64,000 nt of DNA from Flavobacteriaceae bacterium (GCA_024644725.1 JAHEHE010000003.1:2049-66048); one strand, 5' to 3'; numbered from the stretch's first letter, positions 28,067 to 61,595 are shown. Numbers and translations: made by a program. Notes: a model not told the origin generated them from the sequence alone.

Positions 28067-28567
28067 ATGGATCTGTTTCTGGTCATTTTGGGCTTCGTAC
28101 TGATTCTGGTCGGCATCGCCGGATCCGTGCTTCCTGTTCTTCCCGGTCCGCTTTTGGGGTGGTTCGGGCTATTGAGCCTCTATCTGAGCTCCTGGGTGGA
28201 AATGAATTACTACGTTCTGATCATTACTTTCGTGCTGTCTTTGGGCATATTCATCCTGGATTATCTCATCCCCTCCATTGGGGCGAAAAAATTCGGAGGG
28301 AGTAAAAAAGGAGCTATGGGTGCAACCATTGGACTGGTAGTCGGACTTTTTCTTCCGATACCTCTCGGATTCGTCATTGGAGCCTTTGTCGGAGCCTTCA
28401 TCGGTGAGATCATTCACAAGAAAGATGATCTGAAAAGAGCCTGGCGATCAGCCATCGGGTCCTTTCTGGGCTTTCTCACATCCACCGGACTTAAGCTGGT
28501 GCTGAGTTTGTTTTTTTTCGGGTTTTATATCTATCTCGTTGCGTCTAACTGGCCTTCGAGTTTATGA
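28067..28567 (+). CDS. DUF456 family membrane protein
   Basis: GSVLPVLPG, KKFGGSKKG and GAFVGAFIGE. Confidence 0.85.
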   Translation: MDLFLVILGFVLILVGIAGSVLPVLPGPLLGWFGLLSLYLSSWVEMNYYVLIITFVLSLGIFILDYLIPSIGAKKFGGSKKGAMGATIGLVVGLFLPIPLGFVIGAFVGAFIGEIIHKKDDLKRAWRSAIGSFLGFLTSTGLKLVLSLFFFGFYIYLVASNWPSSL

Positions 28568-28637
28568 TTGCCGATTCTGGTATATTTTTTGATGTAAAAA
28601 AATACAAGTTTGTTCATCACATTTTAAACTTACGATC

Positions 28638-30401
28638 ATGTTGACACCCAAATCTATCCCTCTTCTGGGTCGCACGAACATGCGAATTGCACTTCTTCCT
28701 GTTCTTGTTTTATTTTTTGTCCTGCCCGCTCCGGCAAAAACAACCGCATACGATTCAAGCATAAATAGCACCTATAAAACGGATCCGAGTTCCTTTCGGG
28801 AAATCACGGGGCATGTCAGAGGTCAGGGAACCATGCTTTCTAACGTGCGCGTCGCTGTAAAAGATTCATCAAGGGAAACGCTTACAGACGATAAGGGTTT
28901 TTACTCGATAAAAGCAGCCCAGGGAGAGGTTCTGGTGTTCTCGCATTTGGGTCTGAAGAGCATGGAGATCGTCGTCGAGGATATCACGCGTGAGCTGGAT
29001 GTTTCACTTGTGAAAGACTCGAGGATGTTGGATGAAGTTAAATTGAATGCTTCCGCGAACAGCGTAGACGTACCGGATGAATTTGACACAAACTATGGGA
29101 AGGTGAACCGGAAAAAACTGGGTTACTCCTCGAATTACCTGGCGGGAGAAAATCTTAACCTGGCAGGGGTAGATCTGGTTGATGCACTTCGAGGAAAGAT
29201 ACCCGGTTACCAGGTCTATTCTTTGAACAGGGTACAAACGGCGCAACTGCGGCCAGGTGGCGGACCGCCTCTCTGGGAAATTGACGGGGTGCTCTTCCAA
29301 AACGAACCGCCTTACATCGATCTGAATACGATCGAAAGCATCAATGTTATAAAAAGTCCGGGGGGAGCCATGGCTCGTTACGGGGGGCTGGCGTCTGGAG
29401 GTGTGATCATCGTTCGAACTCTTGACAAAGCAAAGAGTCAAAGTATTCCTCAGAAAATTGATGTGTCCAGTGGGACCAATGTGAATCTCTACAAAAAAGA
29501 CGCTGTTTCTTTCGCAAATCAGTCCTATGTGAAGCCCAGTTATCACAAAACTCTTGAAGGAACAAGCAACAGTCTTGAAACACTGGAGAGCTTTGAGAAA
29601 TTTTTGCCCATATATAAGGACGATGCCACTTTTTACCTGGATTTCGCCCGGCGGCTCATGGAAAAGGAAAACAATGAAGAGGCTTCGCTCAAGGTATTGA
29701 ATGAGATGCAGGACAATTTGTTCTACGATCCGGTTGGCCTAAAATCGCTGGCCTATTTCTACCAGGAAAAAGACATGGACCTGGAGGCTTTGCGGGTCTA
29801 TCTCAGAGTTCTTTCCCTAAGACCGGAATACTCCCAATCCTACCGCGATCTGGCGAGCACCTATCGATCGATCGGCATGATTGAGAGCAGCTGGAACTAC
29901 TACATGTACTATCTGAATAAAGTAAAATCTCTTGGGGGCAGTGCCATTGGGGAGACCATCTACCATGAGATGGAAGAAATCCATTATCGCATGCCCAAGG
30001 GCTTTCGACCCAAAGAAGCTTTCGTTTCCAAGACTCCTCTGAAAGATGTGCCCAAAGACGTCCGCCTGATCTTTGAGTGGGACAACTCGGAAGCGGAATT
30101 CGAACTCGAATTTGTGAATCCGCAAGGACAGGCCTACTCCTTTATCCATACCTACGAATACAATGATGAGCAAATCAATGATGAGAAGACCCGGGGATAC
30201 TCATCCCGGGAATACATCATCGATGAGCTCAATCAAAACGGCTGGCTCGTTAATTTGATCTATTTCGGAAATAAATCCAACAAGCCCACTTATCTCAAAG
30301 TCACTGAAATCAGAAACTGGGCCCGCAAAGGCCAGAATGAGGACGTCAGTGTTCTTAAACTCGTCGAGAAGAACAAGAAATTTCAATTGGTTCGAATCTA
30401 G
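28638..30401 (+). CDS. Carboxypeptidase-regulatory-like + TonB plug + TPR + YfaP/DUF2135-like protein with no beta-barrel
   Basis: ITGHV..TDDKGFYSI, plug PLWEIDG...IESINVIK...YG..GGVIIVRT, TPR helices and DVRLIFEWD; the true start may be 28680. Confidence 0.7.
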   Translation: MLTPKSIPLLGRTNMRIALLPVLVLFFVLPAPAKTTAYDSSINSTYKTDPSSFREITGHVRGQGTMLSNVRVAVKDSSRETLTDDKGFYSIKAAQGEVLVFSHLGLKSMEIVVEDITRELDVSLVKDSRMLDEVKLNASANSVDVPDEFDTNYGKVNRKKLGYSSNYLAGENLNLAGVDLVDALRGKIPGYQVYSLNRVQTAQLRPGGGPPLWEIDGVLFQNEPPYIDLNTIESINVIKSPGGAMARYGGLASGGVIIVRTLDKAKSQSIPQKIDVSSGTNVNLYKKDAVSFANQSYVKPSYHKTLEGTSNSLETLESFEKFLPIYKDDATFYLDFARRLMEKENNEEASLKVLNEMQDNLFYDPVGLKSLAYFYQEKDMDLEALRVYLRVLSLRPEYSQSYRDLASTYRSIGMIESSWNYYMYYLNKVKSLGGSAIGETIYHEMEEIHYRMPKGFRPKEAFVSKTPLKDVPKDVRLIFEWDNSEAEFELEFVNPQGQAYSFIHTYEYNDEQINDEKTRGYSSREYIIDELNQNGWLVNLIYFGNKSNKPTYLKVTEIRNWARKGQNEDVSVLKLVEKNKKFQLVRI

Positions 30402-52139: not shown

Positions 52140-53138
52140 ATGTCTATCAAAAATCTTCGAGCTGAGGTCATGCTCACATTGGAGCGAAATGTCAGCCAAT
52201 TCCTGAATGATTATCTCATTCCCCCGGAAAAAATCTGGCAACCCTCCGACTTCTTGCCTAATCCTCAGTCTGAAAACTTTATGGACGAGGTTGAGGAAAT
52301 TCGGGAAGTAGCCAAGGATCTTGGAAATGACTTTTGGGTTACCCTGGTCGGTGACATGGTTACAGAGGAAGCGCTTCCTACGTATGAATCGTGGTTGATG
52401 GATGTGGTAGGTGTAAACCAGCATGGAGAAGAAGGAGACAATGGCTGGGCCAAATGGGTCCGGATGTGGACAGCTGAAGAAAATCGTCACGGAGATGTGC
52501 TCAACAAGTATTTGTACCTGTCAGGAAGGGTCAATATGAGAGAGGTCGAAATCAGTACGCAACACCTGATTGCCGATGGGTTCGATATTGGAACGTCACG
52601 CGATCCTTATAAGAATTTCGTTTACACCAGTTTCCAGGAGTTGGCAACCTATGTCTCTCACAACAATGTCGCTAAAATTGCCCGGAAAGCAGGCTTGAAG
52701 AACCTGTCGAAAATGTGCAAGATCATAGCGGGAGATGAGATGCGACATCACAAAGCCTATACAGAATTCGTCAGACAAATCTTCGAGGTGGACCCAAGCG
52801 AGATGATGTTAGCCTATTTTGACATGATGAAGTTGAAGATTACGATGCCCGCCATGCATCTGAGGGAATCGTTTGAGGCCCAGGGCGGACTTTTTGAAAA
52901 ATTTTCTGAAGTGGCTCAGCGCATTGGCGTATATACCAGTTTTGACTATGTCGACATCTTGAGAAAATTGAATGAAGCCTGGAAGATCGACACCATGTCC
53001 GGGTTGAGTGCCGAAGCTGAAAAGGCTAGAGCCTACTTGATGAAATTACCCGAAAGGATGGAAAGGATTGCAGAGCGCATCGTGATTCCAGACACCGATT
53101 ATGAATTTAAATGGATGAACCCGCTTGTGGTGCGGTGA
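52140..53138 (+). CDS. Acyl-ACP desaturase (soluble di-iron)
   Basis: WQPSDFLP, TEEALPTY, AEENRH, FQE and DEMRH. Confidence 0.93.
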   Translation: MSIKNLRAEVMLTLERNVSQFLNDYLIPPEKIWQPSDFLPNPQSENFMDEVEEIREVAKDLGNDFWVTLVGDMVTEEALPTYESWLMDVVGVNQHGEEGDNGWAKWVRMWTAEENRHGDVLNKYLYLSGRVNMREVEISTQHLIADGFDIGTSRDPYKNFVYTSFQELATYVSHNNVAKIARKAGLKNLSKMCKIIAGDEMRHHKAYTEFVRQIFEVDPSEMMLAYFDMMKLKITMPAMHLRESFEAQGGLFEKFSEVAQRIGVYTSFDYVDILRKLNEAWKIDTMSGLSAEAEKARAYLMKLPERMERIAERIVIPDTDYEFKWMNPLVVR

Positions 53139-55595: not shown

Positions 55596-57887
55596 GTGAA
55601 GGTCAATACAATTTCCGAAAAAATCATTGCTTTCAAATGGCCCATCATCGTATTGGTGTCGGTGCTAACCCTTGTTCTGGGTCTACAGATCCGAAACTTA
55701 AGAATTGACGCAGATGTCTTGAGCTCCCTTCCGGACTCAGACCCCGATGCACTGCTCATGCGTCAGATCGGTCAGAATTTCGGAGGAAATCGAATGGGCA
55801 TTGTCATCCTGGAGACTGACAACATTTACAGGACGGAAGTTATAGAGCATATCCGCATCCTGACCGACACCATCGAAAGGATAGACGGCATTTCCTCGGT
55901 CTCAAGTCTCAGCAATATCATCAATATAAAAGGAGGTGATTCAGGCATCGAAATCGGGCAGCTGGTAGATGAATACAAACTCCCCGAAACCGAAGAGGAA
56001 TTCAACCTGCTCCGGGAGAACATCCAGTCAAATGCCATGTACAAGGGCTCTATCGTCTCTGAGGATGAGACCTCCTGCCTGATTGTTTTCACCCTTCAGG
56101 ATGACGCCAACGTAAATGTTGTGGCTCAACAGGTCATTGATAAAACTACTGCATTGGAGTTGCCCGAAAAGCTCTACTACATCGGATCCCCGATGCTGAT
56201 CACCTACATCGCACAATTGATGAAAAAGGATTTGAGCGGCCTGCTTCCTGTGGCATTGATTCTTATTGCACTCATTCTCTTTGTGAGCTTCAGAACCTGG
56301 AACGGGGTGATTCTACCGTTGTTAACGGCCATTGTCTCGATCATCTGGACCCTGGGACTCATGGCCCTGTTGGGCTTCAGCATGTCGATGATCTCAAACA
56401 ACATACCCATGATCCTGCTGGCCGTGGGAAGCGCATACGCGATTCACGTGGTGAACCGGATACAGCTGCTGCAAAACCAGGGAAACCCCTTCCCGGTCAA
56501 AGCTGCCCTGAGCTATGTCATGATTCCTGTCATTCTCGCCGCAGTTACGACGGCCATCGGATTTGTCTCCTTCATCTTCGGAGCCTACCTGGAAATGATC
56601 AAAGAATTTGGAATTTTTACGGCTGTCGGAACCTTCGTCGCCTGCCTGCTTTCCATCTTTTTCGTCCCGGCAATTCTGGAAGTTTCCGGGAGAAAACTGA
56701 AACGCGGGGAGGTTTCGGAGAGCGCTCGGAATGAAATTTTACAGAACAAGGCCTGGTCAGACCGCTTTTTAAGACCGCTGAAATCTTTCCTGATGAAGCA
56801 TCCAAAGCAAATTCTTGTGACCTGGTGCCTTGTCATCCTGTTTAGTTTGTTTGGAATTTTCTTTATAAAGAGGAGCGTAGACATCCAGGATTATTTCAAA
56901 AAAGGAAACCCAACCCGACAGGCCGAACGCATCATGGTCGAGAAATTTGGTGGAACCAAACCCGTTTTTGTCCACTTCAGGGGAAACATGCAGGATCCCT
57001 GGGTCTTGAATACCATGATGAGAGCCAGCGCCTACATGGAGGAGAGCCCTGACATTTACACCTCCATGTCTGTGGCCAAGCTTATTGCGGAGATCAACCT
57101 GGCCATAACCGGAAATCGTGAGGTTCCTGGAGAAGAGGATATGATACAGCAATTGTGGTTCCTCCTTGACGGCAACGAGGTCATGCAACGCTTCGTAAAC
57201 GAGGATCTGACCGAAGGGATTATCATCTCCAAGTTCAAATCTCCTGACAACAAGTCAAAAAAGGAATTTGCCGCTTACATGCAAAAATTTATAGACTCGA
57301 ATTCCAAAGAAGAATGTGAGATTCAGATCACCGGAATGCCCTTTGTCGACATCACCATGGATCAGAGTCTTGTCAACAGCCAGATCGGAAGCATCAGCAT
57401 CGCCATTGTCTTTGTTATTCTGATCGTGGGTCTGATTCTTCGATCCCTTAAAAGTGGTGTTTATGCCGCATTGCCGATCATTGCCGCGATTCTCATTCTT
57501 TTCGGGCTAATGGGGCTGACCGGCATCTCACTGAATATGGCAACCGTGCTCGTTGCCAGCGTTGCTCTGGGTATTGGCATTGATTATTCGATACATGTCA
57601 TCTCCCATTTCAACCAGGCCTATGCGTACACCGAAGACCTGGATCACGCTATTGACGAAGCCGTGATCGTGAGCGGAAGGGCAATTGTCATCAATGTGAT
57701 TTCGGTCTCAGCGGGATTTCTGGTCCTGGTCTTTTCGGAAATGGTACCCCTGCAATACTTTGGCATATTGATTGCGATCAGCATGTTCAGCTCGTCATTC
57801 GGTGCCCTGACAATGCTCCCGGCCATTTTGATCCTCTCAAAAAAGAAATCCAATCCTGAAAAAAAGAAAATCAAAGAAAAATCCTGA
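55596..57887 (+). CDS. MMPL/RND family transporter
   Basis: Two repeats of TM + periplasmic domain + 5 TM; GSAYAIH and GIGIDYSIH. Confidence 0.92.
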   Translation: MKVNTISEKIIAFKWPIIVLVSVLTLVLGLQIRNLRIDADVLSSLPDSDPDALLMRQIGQNFGGNRMGIVILETDNIYRTEVIEHIRILTDTIERIDGISSVSSLSNIINIKGGDSGIEIGQLVDEYKLPETEEEFNLLRENIQSNAMYKGSIVSEDETSCLIVFTLQDDANVNVVAQQVIDKTTALELPEKLYYIGSPMLITYIAQLMKKDLSGLLPVALILIALILFVSFRTWNGVILPLLTAIVSIIWTLGLMALLGFSMSMISNNIPMILLAVGSAYAIHVVNRIQLLQNQGNPFPVKAALSYVMIPVILAAVTTAIGFVSFIFGAYLEMIKEFGIFTAVGTFVACLLSIFFVPAILEVSGRKLKRGEVSESARNEILQNKAWSDRFLRPLKSFLMKHPKQILVTWCLVILFSLFGIFFIKRSVDIQDYFKKGNPTRQAERIMVEKFGGTKPVFVHFRGNMQDPWVLNTMMRASAYMEESPDIYTSMSVAKLIAEINLAITGNREVPGEEDMIQQLWFLLDGNEVMQRFVNEDLTEGIIISKFKSPDNKSKKEFAAYMQKFIDSNSKEECEIQITGMPFVDITMDQSLVNSQIGSISIAIVFVILIVGLILRSLKSGVYAALPIIAAILILFGLMGLTGISLNMATVLVASVALGIGIDYSIHVISHFNQAYAYTEDLDHAIDEAVIVSGRAIVINVISVSAGFLVLVFSEMVPLQYFGILIAISMFSSSFGALTMLPAILILSKKKSNPEKKKIKEKS

Positions 57888-57888
57888 C

Positions 57889-58665
57889 ATGATGAATCCC
57901 ATGGTATCCGTTACGAAAAATTTTAAACCCGCTCTCTGTTTTCTGCTCTTCTTTGTCATCCTGAACCCATCAATGAAAGCCCAGAGCGCCAGTGAACTTC
58001 TCATCTCTATGGATGAACTCATGTCGGCCCCACAGGACAAAGAGGCCAAGGTCAAAATGGTTTTGACAGATAAATCCGGAAAGGAAAAGGTCCGTGAAGC
58101 CGTTTTGATTCAAAAGGGACGATACAAGAAGCTGTACAGGTACACCCAGCCCGAAAAGCAGGCCGGGATTGCCACCCTGTCTCTCCCGGACGACAAGATG
58201 TGGATGTATATGCCTGCCTTCGGAAAACCGATCAAAATCTCCTTATTGAGCAAAAGCCAGGCCTTCACCGGAACGGACTTCTCCTACGAAGACATGACGG
58301 GAACCTCCTACAGCGACAGGTTCACCCCGGGTATCGTGGAAAATCCAAATCCCGACATCGTTCAACTGGAACTGATGCCCATGTCGATGAAATCCAGGTA
58401 TTCAAAGATCATCGTCTACCTGAACCGCAAACACAGGTATCCTGAAAAAATGGAATACTTTGACGACAATAAGGAATACTTCAAATTCGCGACCTACAAA
58501 TATGTCAAGCAAGGAAAGTACTGGTATGCACAGGAAGTGATTATGACCGACATTAAAAAAGAGCATTCGACAAGCATCTTTTTAAGTGACATGAAATTCG
58601 ACCAGGGAATCTCAGACGATATTTTCACCGTAGAGAACCTGGCGGCCGGTAAGAGTTCCGAATAA
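57889..58665 (+). CDS. Outer membrane lipoprotein-sorting (LolA-like) protein
   Basis: Signal peptide, MWMYMPA, FTGTDFSYEDM and FTVENL; starts 1 nt after the MMPL stop. Confidence 0.85.
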   Translation: MMNPMVSVTKNFKPALCFLLFFVILNPSMKAQSASELLISMDELMSAPQDKEAKVKMVLTDKSGKEKVREAVLIQKGRYKKLYRYTQPEKQAGIATLSLPDDKMWMYMPAFGKPIKISLLSKSQAFTGTDFSYEDMTGTSYSDRFTPGIVENPNPDIVQLELMPMSMKSRYSKIIVYLNRKHRYPEKMEYFDDNKEYFKFATYKYVKQGKYWYAQEVIMTDIKKEHSTSIFLSDMKFDQGISDDIFTVENLAAGKSSE

Positions 58666-58671
58666 TCGAAT

Positions 58672-59358
58672 TCACCGAATGAAGTCATAGGACTTTCCCT
58701 GGTACTTCTCCTCTCCCATGGCCTCTCGAAGCCCCTGGAGGGTGTGATACGGGGTGTCCCCGGCAAACATGTTCGCCATCCAGGCAGGAATGTTTCCTCC
58801 GGGATCCATTTGCATTTGAAATGTAATCTCCAGTTTTCCGTCGTCCAAATCTCGAACAACCCATGAGCCATAGCCCTCCATTCGGACCAGGTTGTCCTTC
58901 TCGGGAATCAGGTCCTCAGGCATTTTGATTTCAACAATCAGTGTTCTTTCTTTGGCGTTCCATTTGAAATTATTGAGATAAACACCGTCCCGATTCTTAT
59001 ACGGAAAAGGAGCCTTGGCCTCTGAGTAGTATACCTGCACTGTATCGGCCTCGCGACTGATAAGAGAGGCACTTTTTACATTGTAGCCCCAGGAAGACAA
59101 ACCTTCTATGTCGTATAGAACAGAGATAAACTGATCCAGGGTGCCCTTGACGATCACGCTGGATTTGAATTCCTTGAAATTCATGCCCGGATTGCTTCGG
59201 GTGAAGACCGTGATCCCTTCCTTCTGTCGAATCTGCTTCCATTCTTGCCGGCTATTCACATCTTTTTCCTGGGAATGTGCCCCAAAGTTCATGCTGAGTA
59301 GCACGATTATAAAAACAACAAACCATTTTGGAAGCAGCAATCTCTTAGTGGCATTCAT
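58672..59358 (-). CDS. START/SRPBCC lipid-binding domain protein with signal peptide
   Basis: EGITVFTR, APFPYKNRD, VRM, DPGGNIPAWMAN; hydrophobic N-terminus. Confidence 0.85.
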   Translation of the reverse strand: MNATKRLLLPKWFVVFIIVLLSMNFGAHSQEKDVNSRQEWKQIRQKEGITVFTRSNPGMNFKEFKSSVIVKGTLDQFISVLYDIEGLSSWGYNVKSASLISREADTVQVYYSEAKAPFPYKNRDGVYLNNFKWNAKERTLIVEIKMPEDLIPEKDNLVRMEGYGSWVVRDLDDGKLEITFQMQMDPGGNIPAWMANMFAGDTPYHTLQGLREAMGEEKYQGKSYDFIR

Positions 59359-60479
59359 GAATTGTCCTTGTTTTTATATCCCCATTCGGCAAAGGCAAAG
59401 CCCCACTCCTTTTGAATCCTCTCTTGCAGTTCCGGGGCTACTTCATGCCGATTCTTCTGGTAACTTTTCATGCGATCGACATATTGCTGAAAGTAAGATT
59501 CAGCCTGCTCGTAACCTTCGAGCTCAAGGGCATTGTAAATCTCGCGGGTCACACCCATGGGATCCTTCTCCAGATCCTCAAACGATACTTCCACCAGCTG
59601 CCCCTCTGGAACAAGAGAGCGCTGTTTCAGGTAGTCCTTCATCAACATTTTGTAGATTTCAAAAATATCTTCGTTGAGCTGCTCCTGGTCAATGGTTTGT
59701 AACTGCAGGTGCGGCATCATTTTGCGAAAGAAGTTCTGTGTTGACAGGTATACCTCGACAGGATTTCTGTGGATATGGATGAATTTGGCCTCCGGGTAAG
59801 TTTCCAACAAGAACCGGATTCTTCCCGTGTTCGGTGGATTCTTTGACAGAAAGCGGTCCCCGCCCGTATCACGAATGGCCTTTGCGACAAGTAGCTTATA
59901 GTCGGAGCGCCAGGATTCCCTTCGTCCATCTGAAATACCCAACATCCTTATGCAACGATCGTAGTATTCTCGCATTCGACGCGGGAACATCCAGAAGTAG
60001 TAGTAGCAAACCGGGGTCTTGTCTCCCAGGGCAAACTCTTCCTCCTGAGGCAGGCGGGTACCCAGAGTCACATTGTCTCCCTTACGGGTTCCGGGAATCA
60101 ACAATCGAGCAAATCCCTCAAAAATGAATCGACCCAACCAGGAGAAGAGGGTGTCGGGGAAAACACTCTGGAAAGTGCTTGCATACGCCATCCTCGGGTC
60201 TTTGCAAAGAAGATTGTGCAGGTGCGTGGTCCCACTCCGCCAGTGACCCAGGATAAATATCGGAGGATGGTCCAATTCAGTTTTCGCCATTCGTGGATTG
60301 ACCACAATTCGCTCATAGATCCGGAAAGGCAGATTGACCAGGTTGATGATCAGGGTGATCAAAAGGCGCGGAATGTATCTCAAAGACACCCTGTTTCGAA
60401 TGAGGAGGGAACCCATGATGGGCAGTGAATATCCGACAGCCGGGGGTAACAGGAATCCTTTTTTTCTCTTTTCCGCCAT
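59355..60479 (-). CDS. PAPS-dependent sulfotransferase (family 3, Stf3-like)
   Basis: PPIFILGHWRSGTTHLH, PQEEEF, LSKNPP and FIHIHRNP. Confidence 0.88.
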   Translation of the reverse strand: MAEKRKKGFLLPPAVGYSLPIMGSLLIRNRVSLRYIPRLLITLIINLVNLPFRIYERIVVNPRMAKTELDHPPIFILGHWRSGTTHLHNLLCKDPRMAYASTFQSVFPDTLFSWLGRFIFEGFARLLIPGTRKGDNVTLGTRLPQEEEFALGDKTPVCYYYFWMFPRRMREYYDRCIRMLGISDGRRESWRSDYKLLVAKAIRDTGGDRFLSKNPPNTGRIRFLLETYPEAKFIHIHRNPVEVYLSTQNFFRKMMPHLQLQTIDQEQLNEDIFEIYKMLMKDYLKQRSLVPEGQLVEVSFEDLEKDPMGVTREIYNALELEGYEQAESYFQQYVDRMKSYQKNRHEVAPELQERIQKEWGFAFAEWGYKNKDNS

Positions 60480-60485
60480 CTTTCT

Positions 60486-61022
60486 CTACCAGGTGTATTC
60501 CGGCGGATCAATATTGTTCATTCTCAAATAGAGATTGGATTTAGCCCGGTGATTGGCCATGTGATCCTGAACATAGAAAAACGCAAAAGCCCTGCTAACC
60601 GTATTGCCACTGTGATACATGACACAAGTCTCGTCAAGTTGTTCTTGCTCGATGGTGTAGATCACATCGGTGGTATAATCAAAAGCTTCTTCAAGCAATG
60701 TGAGAATTTCCTGCTTGCTCATTTTAGAGGCGTCCGGAGTGTTTGGCTTGACATCCATGCCCTGGACATATCTTTGGGTCAGCAAGGGAATCGTATGTGC
60801 TATATGCACCATTTGTTCACCGAAGGTCTTACTCACCTCCGTGGGCTTGTAGGCATACTTTTCTTCCGGCATGGCTCGTGCCACATCCATGCAATGATCC
60901 CGGGCCTCGATCCATACGGGGAGGTACATCTTCGTGAAATCTGTTTCGGGCTCCTTTTCTTTCTGTGCGGTCGCTGTGAATACGGCAAGAAAAATAAGGG
61001 CAAGGGCAGTTTTGTATTTCAT
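60486..61022 (-). CDS. Secreted DinB family protein
   Basis: Signal peptide, MPEEKYAYKP, GEQMVH and DHMANHR His triad. Confidence 0.85.
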   Translation of the reverse strand: MKYKTALALIFLAVFTATAQKEKEPETDFTKMYLPVWIEARDHCMDVARAMPEEKYAYKPTEVSKTFGEQMVHIAHTIPLLTQRYVQGMDVKPNTPDASKMSKQEILTLLEEAFDYTTDVIYTIEQEQLDETCVMYHSGNTVSRAFAFFYVQDHMANHRAKSNLYLRMNNIDPPEYTW

Positions 61023-61052: not shown

Positions 61053-61400
61053 CTATCGCTTCACCAGCTTTTTAGTTATGTGGTGCTCGTTCGAATAGAT
61101 CTTGATCATGTAAATCCCCGAATCCAGGTCGCCGAGGTATATCCTTGAAGGATTCTTGGGAACATCCTTGAGCTTTTGTCCTAAGAGACTGAAAACCTCA
61201 ACATGTGTAATCGGAATGGAGGACTGCAGGTTGACGTAATGCTGAACCGGGTTCGGAAACATCTTCACTGCCTGGTTGAGTTTGAAACTGGTCATTTCTT
61301 CCTGCACAGACGCGGATTCCTGAAGCTCAGTCTGCGCAGAGCAAACGGCAGACAAACCAAACAAAAAGAAAAAAAGAAAGACAGTGTAATGTTTCTTCAT
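61053..61400 (-). CDS. Small protein consisting almost only of a T9SS type A C-terminal domain
   Basis: Signal peptide, then MFPNPV...FSLLGQ...LDSGIYMIKI...KKLVKR. Confidence 0.85.
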   Translation of the reverse strand: MKKHYTVFLFFFLFGLSAVCSAQTELQESASVQEEMTSFKLNQAVKMFPNPVQHYVNLQSSIPITHVEVFSLLGQKLKDVPKNPSRIYLGDLDSGIYMIKIYSNEHHITKKLVKR

Positions 61401-61522: not shown

Positions 61523-61553
61523 AAAAAAAATGCCAGGCTTTTAAGCCTGGCAT
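61523..61553 (-). terminator. Intrinsic terminator of the lipoprotein gene
   Basis: ATGCCAGGCTT/AAGCCTGGCAT inverted repeat with a U-tract on the minus strand. Confidence 0.85.
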
Positions 61554-61595
61554 CCTAAAGAACTTGCAGAGATTAAGTCTATTTAAACTTAGGGT

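Follow-up and report, generated by a model that had tools for sequence, protein, structure and literature searches.

Do the two short operons that converge on one another in a marine flavobacterium encode a single lipid-handling system, and if so, which lipid does the system modify and where does it take it? The question is raised by positions 55,596 to 61,022 of a stretch of 64,000 nucleotides (GCA_024644725.1 JAHEHE010000003.1:2049-66048), referred to below as the window, from a host that named homologues assign to the genus Lutimonas, family Flavobacteriaceae. Here the genes for an MMPL transporter and a LolA-like carrier run head-on into a minus-strand operon that encodes a DinB-family protein, a sulfotransferase (SULT) that uses 3'-phosphoadenosine-5'-phosphosulfate (PAPS), as well as a START protein. 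Gene families in the window were assigned from Pfam profiles and the gene junctions were taken directly off the sequence. The coordinates and families first claimed in a sequence-only reading of the window were borne out, as the open reading frames lie where they had been placed and Pfam agrees with their naming:

55596-57887, plus strand: MMPL/HAE3-type resistance-nodulation-division (RND) inner-membrane lipid transporter, 763 amino acids, GTG start (Pfam MMPL, 154.9 bits)
57889-58665, plus strand: periplasmic LolA-like lipid carrier (Pfam LolA_like, PF17131, 139 bits)
58672-59358, minus strand: START protein with a signal peptide, of the periplasmic lipid-binding type (Pfam START, 45 bits; cut-off 22)
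59355-60479, minus strand: PAPS-dependent sulfotransferase, SULT, with a hydrophobic N-terminal segment (Pfam Sulfotransfer_3, 124.8 bits; cut-off 27)
60486-61022, minus strand: secreted DinB-family protein (Pfam DinB, 37.9 bits)

All of the junctions that had been claimed can be read in the sequence. MMPL and the LolA-like gene are separated by a 1-nt gap (TGAcATG), the convergent ends leave 6 nt between the LolA-like stop codon (58665) and that of START (58672), and SULT and START overlap by ATGA, which points to translational coupling. A further 6 nt lie between the DinB stop codon and the SULT ATG. Inspection by eye suggests cleavable signal peptides, none with a lipobox cysteine, for START, the LolA-like protein and DinB. 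None of the NCBIfam profiles matched SULT, START or DinB.

To follow the two operons beyond the window we drew 80 SULT loci from contigs with one genome per species and considered a locus informative if it extended at least 5 kb downstream of SULT. This left 43 loci, 12 with Lutimonas-type flanks and 31 without (non-Lutimonas loci). Absences of a partner gene were rechecked by tblastn, and some apparent absences were found to be artefacts of gene calling. Synteny inside Lutimonas is uninformative on linkage, since the whole stretch from an acyl-ACP desaturase gene to an ABC transporter gene is colinear in 13 genomes of the genus. Outside it, SULT followed by START, met by convergent LolA-like and MMPL genes, was retained with all three partners in 26 of the 31 loci, and the flanks of these loci are unrelated. 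The same layout occurs among unrelated neighbours in Formosa maritima, in a Bacteroidales metagenome-assembled genome (MAG) and on a JGI contig; in the Bacteroidales MAG a HepT/MNT toxin-antitoxin pair has been inserted between the SULT-START and LolA-like-MMPL halves. Over all informative loci START lies directly 3' of SULT in 37 of 43, and MMPL orthologues (58-94% identity) adjoin the LolA-like gene, also in 37 of 43. Directly 3' of MMPL, the non-Lutimonas loci frequently carry a steroid-5-alpha-reductase homologue of the SRD5A type (21/31) and a short-chain dehydrogenase/reductase (SDR; 23/31). The module-type loci form one SULT clade in the tree, with support of 99/92.

The presence and absence of these genes follow the same pattern. 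In a genus profile of 25 genomes, comprising 24 Lutimonas genomes and that of the window (G000), the 14 genomes with a SULT orthologue are also the 14 with a LolA-like orthologue, and SRD5A is present in 13 of these 14 and in one other genome; SULT, the LolA-like gene and SRD5A were not found in Lutimonas G001, which is 99% complete. In a family profile of 300 Flavobacteriaceae genomes of at least 90% completeness from 266 genera, together with G000, 8 of 301 genomes, spread over 6 genera, carry a SULT orthologue, and precisely these 8 carry a LolA-like one. All 8 carry SRD5A, as do 2 further genomes, and the module is present in about 2-3% of the sampled Flavobacteriaceae genomes. The linkage retained in other genera and the identical phyletic pattern place the arrangement far beyond chance. 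Lutimonas G016 keeps the backbone of the region, with the Mac, DinB and Por-tail genes, and is without MMPL, LolA-like, START and SULT; a gluconate-2-dehydrogenase-subunit-3-like gene and a GMC oxidoreductase occupy the place where the four genes would lie. Because this backbone is retained without them, the four genes behave as one insertion/deletion block.

These data bear on the possibility that two unrelated functions travel together: some lipid or xenobiotic would be modified by SULT and START, and an envelope lipid that has nothing to do with it would be exported by MMPL and the LolA-like protein. The two pairs are on opposite strands and transcribed separately, SULT stands alone at a few loci, the diverged pairs of one MAG (G013, below) are on different contigs, and in Cytophagales SULT and START adjoin a different, AcrB-like tripartite pump. 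However, the substitution of another RND exporter in Cytophagales itself argues for a need for export, and a chance association would have to survive differing flanks in 26 of 31 loci, identical presence and absence in 301 Flavobacteriaceae and 25 Lutimonas genomes, and the loss of all four genes together in G016. We regard this possibility as very unlikely. The linkage of the operons in other genomes was the test named beforehand for the proposal that they are one functional unit, and the proposal came through it: linkage in 26 of 31 non-Lutimonas loci, a shared phyletic pattern and block loss. It is well supported that MMPL, LolA-like, START and SULT together make up the core of an accessory module that is conserved, and patchily spread, in Bacteroidota.

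The sequence-only reading had also placed DinB in this system, and here it had to be corrected. DinB was found in 2 of 13 SULT carriers among the genus loci checked, both being the closest relatives of the window, and in none of the 26 non-Lutimonas module loci; it is present in Lutimonas G016 and G021, both without the module. We thus reject DinB as a member even though it is physically part of the operon here. The small gene for a Por_Secre_tail protein behaves similarly, as it occurs at position -1 or -2 solely in loci with Lutimonas-type flanks.

Some individual loci depart from the common layout. At two Lutimonas-type loci (L059:10001-11498 and L057:10001-11351) SULT is kept next to a START remnant of 50-70 residues, with no LolA-like or MMPL gene, and the module appears to be decaying. 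At L127, SULT is fragmented beside intact LolA-like, MMPL, SRD5A and SDR genes. MAG G013, of the same genus, contains diverged copies of SULT (33% identity), START (32%), MMPL (44%) and LolA-like (42%), with the SULT-START and MMPL-LolA-like pairs on separate contigs (L034 C10; L044 C109). Either horizontal acquisition of a second version or an error of binning could account for them.

What lipid the module acts on is indicated first by the sulfotransferase. In an alignment of eight sequences the GHWRSGTT motif (G78-T85), the PQEEEFA motif and the residues R238, P240, E242 and S246 are invariant; we take GHWRSGTT to be the 5'-phosphosulfate-binding (5'-PSB) loop and RNP..E....S to be the 3'-phosphate-binding (3'-PB) motif. 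The window SULT is 39% identical to a Bacteroides faecis protein (P0246; E 2e-79) and 41% identical to a Parabacteroides goldsteinii protein (P0302; E 3e-82), in both cases over nearly the full length. These comparators are named members of the gut cluster rather than the exact accessions assayed in PMC13696130. L128, one of the more distant SULT homologues described below, shares 65-69% identity with proteins whose names refer to Bacteroides, Parabacteroides/Tannerellaceae, Coprobacter and Odoribacter, and the gut cluster that contains its relatives includes B. faecis and P. goldsteinii. The characterized enzymes of this group, BtSULT (BT_0416) and PmSult/PgSult, resemble the window SULT in belonging to the Sulfotransfer_3 family, in being of about equal length, in 39-41% identity between it and group members, and in the common motifs GHWRSGTT, PQEEEFAL and NPP.TGR. 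Both PgSult and BtSult add sulfate to cholesterol and to phytosterols (PMC13696130), and BtSULT prefers steroids with a flat 5-alpha or 5-ene A/B ring system (PMC13449962).

The two groups are related rather than the same. Monophyly of the gut PAPS-linked clade has support of 100/100, and this clade is placed across the tree from that of the window, so that by phylogeny the window SULT is a sister group, and not a member, of the BtSULT-type clade. More distant homologues (38-44% identity) in Rikenellaceae and other Bacteroidales lie in a row CysQ-sulfate transporter-CysC-CysD-CysN-SULT-PCMD, and the first six genes of this layout have been reported for BT_0411-BT_0416 (PMC9417993). Both groups have PAPS genes in the genome and in both a PCMD-domain partner recurs. 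They differ in that the gut SULT genes adjoin CysQ, the transporter and CysC/D/N, whereas the cys genes of the window's genome are away on contig C15, and in that the window SULT, unlike BtSULT, is coupled to START, LolA-like, MMPL and a 5-alpha-reductase-SDR pair. The named carriers of the module are mostly marine isolates and environmental MAGs, whereas BtSULT carriers are gut strains. In Chitinophaga/Sphingobacteriales (L110, L113, L115) a further SULT subclade of about 40% identity lies between a gene for a giant protein (>2000 amino acids) and genes for a secretory lipase with a type IX secretion system (T9SS) tail and an acyl-CoA dehydrogenase; this subclade may have a different lipid acceptor.

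On these comparisons, made with the gut proteins and with solved structures, the earlier suggestion that mycobacterial Stf3 is the closest relative finds no support. The nearest solved chains, 2zq5 and 2z6v, which we take to be mycobacterial Stf1 and Stf9, match weakly (E about 1e-7, against 2e-79 and 3e-82 for the BtSULT group). If SULT were Stf3-like, its acceptor would be a menaquinone (MK-6 in flavobacteria) that is hydroxylated and saturated in part, and MMPL would export the product in the manner of the Mycobacterium tuberculosis lipid S881. Those nearest structures and the adjacent MMPL gene are in keeping with such a role, the membrane reductase could saturate an isoprene unit, and a JGI record labels a 58%-identical homologue 'omega-hydroxy-beta-dihydromenaquinone-9 sulfotransferase'. 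This name, however, resembles an automatic best-hit label, the distance in E value between the two groups (about 1e-7 and about 1e-80) speaks for the gut enzymes, and neither a Cyp128-like P450 nor a MenJ-type reductase was found among the annotated neighbours (those of the window and three outside loci) or the annotated conserved families. We consider the menaquinone the least probable of the acceptors weighed here. What the module shares with the mycobacterial Stf1/Stf9/Stf3 and MmpL systems is the Sulfotransfer_3 fold and the logic of sulfating a lipid and then exporting it by an MMPL protein. It differs in the Gram-negative envelope with its periplasmic carriers, and no P450, polyketide synthase or acyltransferase was seen among the annotated module neighbours.

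The second indication comes from the reductase and dehydrogenase. In its full form the module has six genes, the core four together with the SRD5A-type reductase and an SDR that resembles 3-beta-hydroxysteroid dehydrogenase (3-beta-HSD), HpnA and SdmB. In the window's genome this pair lies on another contig (G000:C34:28067-29820), out of sight of the sequence-only reading, where the genes at 28067-28816 and 28813-29820 overlap by 4 nt and encode a 249-residue Steroid_dh protein (Pfam, 167 bits) and a 335-residue SDR. The reductase matches PbSRD5A (7c83) with an E value of 7.5e-61, human SRD5A2 (7bw1) with 5.8e-43 and TECR with 2.9e-13; within this set of three comparisons it is by sequence closer to the SRD5A1/2 type than to TECR. 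The SDR matches Pfam 3Beta_HSD. Among NCBIfam models it scores best with HpnA, at 258 bits, and with SdmB, a partner protein of sterol demethylase, at 195 bits; neither score reaches the cut-off of its model. The two genes are adjacent in at least 20 other loci. Since the six-gene form is found on the deepest branches of the module SULT clade (L098, L082), the split of the pair from the rest of the module in Lutimonas looks secondary.

Adjacent genes for a 5-alpha-reductase (5AR) and a 3-beta-hydroxysteroid dehydrogenase (3-beta-HSDH) are also present in gut Bacteroidales, where they make the 5-alpha-3-beta-ol isoallolithocholic acid (isoalloLCA) (PMC10942478). The likeness to the C34 pair is one of gene type, an SRD5A-type gene next to a hydroxysteroid-dehydrogenase-type SDR gene. 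The gut pair makes 3-oxoallolithocholic acid (3-oxoallo-LCA) and isoalloLCA, and these belong to the 5-alpha-3-beta-ols, the class of product that BtSULT sulfates (PMC10942478, PMC13449962). The module pair differs in having no 5-beta-reductase partner that we could see and in adjoining a transporter and a sulfotransferase in most carriers. Four Rikenellaceae/Bacteroidales genomes of the gut SULT clade contained no SRD5A homologue.

The surroundings of the C34 pair (G000:C34:26058-31246) include, on its 5' side, a PMT_2/ArnT-like glycosyltransferase gene that is cut by the contig end, and on its 3' side genes for a DUF4174 protein, an FAD/BBE-type oxidase and a 437-residue protein. In Lutimonas G018 the genes 3' of the pair are syntenic with those of C34 and the glycosyltransferase is not. 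A link to polyprenols through this glycosyltransferase was considered and rejected, as the adjacency is not kept in G018.

The transport proteins are of types that handle lipids. MMPL has two matched stretches, at residues 57-369 and about 600-752, and also matches the Pfam Sterol-sensing and Patched SSD profiles. It falls below the cut-off of the HAE3 model TIGR00921 (310.5 bits; cut-off 351.9), and scores 50.1 bits against the BstA model (cut-off 1400) and 121 against HpnN (cut-off 752). The best solved structure for the LolA-like protein is 3bk5 (E 6e-21), and START matches the bacterial START structure 3qsz (E 1.9e-28) and PCTP (E 2.9e-10); these matches settle the folds of the two proteins. 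START is also paired with more distant SULT paralogues (L034, L111, L121). Pairs of MMPL and LolA-like export proteins are part of aryl-polyene and flexirubin clusters, where they are thought to carry lipid to the outer membrane. Compared with these, the module is without polyketide-type biosynthesis genes, and its partners are steroid-type enzymes and a sulfotransferase. BstABC, which acts on sterols in Methylococcus capsulatus, and HpnN, which acts on hopanoids, resemble it in combining an RND inner-membrane transporter with periplasmic lipid-binding proteins (PMC10942540). The periplasmic partners of the module are of other folds (LolA-like and START), and the carriers searched (below) seem to make no sterol or hopanoid.

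Contrary to the earlier suggestion that an outer-membrane barrel is missing and that START might stand in for it, a gene for an outer-membrane protein (OMP) beta-barrel lies directly 5' of SULT, alongside START, in 8 of the 26 non-Lutimonas loci. The window's genome has a 37%-identical OMP barrel gene on contig C42, and START is a soluble periplasmic protein. In the Flavobacteriaceae variants an OMP beta-barrel and a DUF1295 membrane protein are often encoded 5' of SULT. In Cytophagales/Cyclobacteriaceae (L111:2-7115 and L121:2-8505), SULT (39% identity), START and DUF1295 genes occur with a tripartite pump composed of AcrB-like RND, HlyD and outer-membrane efflux (OEP) components, which takes the place of MMPL and LolA-like and may have met the same need for export independently.

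Genes for PAPS supply are present in the window's genome as cysC-cysD-cysN on contig C15, encoding the adenosine 5'-phosphosulfate (APS) kinase, CysD and CysN. Neither G000, which is 90% complete, nor any of five further carriers, two of which are 100%-complete Lutimonas genomes, yielded a squalene or oxidosqualene cyclase (SQHop_cyclase_C). Synthesis of a sterol or hopanoid of their own was thereby rejected for these six carriers. In the Bacteroidales-type variants the genes immediately 5' of SULT encode a PCMD protein and a TonB-dependent receptor; in Bacteroidales and Lentimicrobiaceae-type MAGs (L127:6531-9958, and also L080, L075, L098 and L037) the PCMD protein has a T9SS tail. A PCMD gene also lies 3' of the BtSULT-like gene in gut Rikenellaceae/Bacteroidales. 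PCMD may be a steroid-binding surface partner.

On balance we think it probable, by no wide measure, that the module 5-alpha-reduces an acquired steroid-like lipid, sulfates its 3-hydroxyl with PAPS and exports the product through MMPL, the LolA-like protein and START. From homology and gene context we infer what the substrate is, in which order the steps run and which way transport goes. The process would begin with the entry into the inner membrane of a steroid-like lipid whose A ring is of the 3-hydroxy-delta5 or 3-oxo-delta4 type, most likely from eukaryotes, since the carriers searched are without squalene and oxidosqualene cyclases. The SDR and the membrane 5-alpha-reductase would turn it into a flat 5-alpha-3-beta-ol, whose 3-OH would be sulfated on the cytoplasmic side by the membrane-associated SULT with PAPS from the C15 cysC-cysD-cysN products. 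The proton-driven MMPL pump would extract the sulfate ester and hand it to the periplasmic LolA-like and START carriers, which would take it to the outer membrane or outside. The claim that all four core products are of lipid-handling types agrees with such a PAPS-dependent sulfation and periplasmic passage of a lipid. Of the acceptors that the sequence-only reading had put forward, the modified host sterol is now favoured, whereas the Stf3-like quinone has found little support.

The same proteins might instead import a steroid, for catabolism or detoxification, with sulfation serving to solubilize or neutralize a membrane-disturbing compound. The TonB-dependent receptor and PCMD genes 5' of SULT in the Bacteroidales-type variants fit such uptake, as do the six carriers in which sterol synthesis genes were not found and the host and dietary sterols that are the substrates of gut BtSULT (PMC9417993, PMC13696130). 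Among the annotated neighbours and conserved families, however, no genes for steroid ring degradation were seen. The known MMPL/HAE3 pumps, HpnN, MmpL3 and BstA, moreover move lipids outward. Uptake overlaps with the export of an acquired steroid and departs from it in purpose and direction alone; we hold it to be decidedly unlikely.

Several observations weigh against the export of a sulfated steroid. The complete START/LolA-like/MMPL set is missing in 5 of the 31 non-Lutimonas and 2 of the 12 Lutimonas-type loci, and, with carrier genomes that are related to one another, the co-occurrence counts overstate independence. The Lutimonas reductase-SDR pair is unlinked to the module, and G023 has the pair with no SULT detected. 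Enzymes of the SRD5A and extended-SDR families also act on non-steroids such as polyprenols and enoyl-CoA. We infer the acceptor lipid from homologues alone, and the specificity of the window SULT may differ from that of the characterized gut enzymes, since its clade is separate from theirs. The outward direction of MMPL is assumed by analogy with HpnN, MmpL3 and BstA.

A final point against a steroid is that a phytoene/squalene-synthase (SQS_PSY) homologue was found in all five further carrier genomes tested, which makes a carotenoid or other isoprenoid-alcohol acceptor possible; an attempt to exclude carotenoids by phyletic pattern failed on this gene. The same module would then take an isoprenoid alcohol of the cell's own, either a hydroxy-carotenoid such as zeaxanthin or a polyprenol, use its SDR and SRD5A-like pair to saturate the adjacent double bond, then sulfate the alcohol and export it to the outer membrane. 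Zeaxanthin has a homoallylic 3-OH like that of sterols, and in dolichol synthesis DHRSX and SRD5A3 saturate a double bond of polyprenol. In addition to the SQS_PSY genes, this proposal is in line with the apparent lack of sterol and hopanoid synthesis in the carrier genomes searched, a Lutimonas species named zeaxanthinifaciens, the position of the G000 pair 3' of a glycosyltransferase of a type that uses polyprenyl-phosphate sugars, and the MMPL and LolA-like pairs of the aryl-polyene and flexirubin pigment clusters. It is opposed by the reductase being much nearer to the SRD5A1/2 type than to TECR, and by the loss of the glycosyltransferase adjacency in G018. The module's distribution does not track pigment synthesis, as carotenoid genes are presumably common in Flavobacteriaceae while the module is rare among the sampled genomes. 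The TonB receptor and PCMD of some variants suggest uptake, and the characterized SULT relatives are sterol-specific (PMC13696130, PMC13449962). We consider an endogenous isoprenoid alcohol unlikely, if deserving of more weight than the other alternatives.

For steroid sulfation in bacteria, all that has been characterized so far is one enzyme, encoded next to PAPS genes in gut Bacteroides and Parabacteroides, and bacterial steroid 5-alpha-reduction is known from a separate gene pair. In the module of marine and environmental Bacteroidota the two would be combined with a pump of the inner membrane and a pair of lipid carriers of the periplasm. Full-text literature searches, which did return the gut single-enzyme system and the gut reductase pair, found no published description of the combination. 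If the proposed mechanism is true, the module would offer the first genetic access to the passage of a steroid conjugate across a Gram-negative envelope, and native roles for the SRD5A homologues and START proteins of bacteria would suggest themselves. A wider and more tentative picture, which we consider possible but doubtful, is that marine Bacteroidota convert algal or invertebrate sterols to 5-alpha-stanol 3-sulfates and export them via a conveyor of MMPL, LolA-like, START and the barrel, with entry through TonB/PCMD in some lineages. As a system that transports a steroid conjugate through the envelope, such a conveyor would be the first in Gram-negative bacteria. With a sterol as the substrate, sterol sulfates in the sea would have a bacterial source. 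In animals, sterol sulfates are active in immunity and metabolism. In the bloom-forming diatom Skeletonema marinoi they are death signals, according to work cited in PMC13696130. Several module carriers are cultured isolates, among them Lutimonas zeaxanthinifaciens, L. saemankumensis, Formosa maritima, Bizionia arctica and Xanthomarina spongicola, which makes the idea directly testable.

The remaining features of the region lie outside the module:

52140-53138, plus strand: soluble acyl-ACP desaturase (FA_desaturase_2, 448 bits), 2.5 kb upstream
61053-61400, minus strand: small protein with a T9SS tail (Por_Secre_tail, Pfam, 41.9 bits), 5' of SULT
61527-61556, minus strand: terminator-like hairpin with a 13-bp stem and a T-run, closing the upstream minus-strand gene (consensus scan, pattern match only)

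The hairpin is likely, as judged from this pattern, to be the upstream boundary of a Por-DinB-SULT-START transcription unit. By Pfam, the upstream flank of the window also holds an M61 peptidase and a maltose-acetyltransferase-like (Mac) gene, and the downstream flank the T9SS-tail protein and an ABC transporter. To our knowledge the soluble acyl-ACP desaturase family is uncommon in bacteria. The desaturase gene is syntenic across Lutimonas and is without linkage to the module elsewhere.

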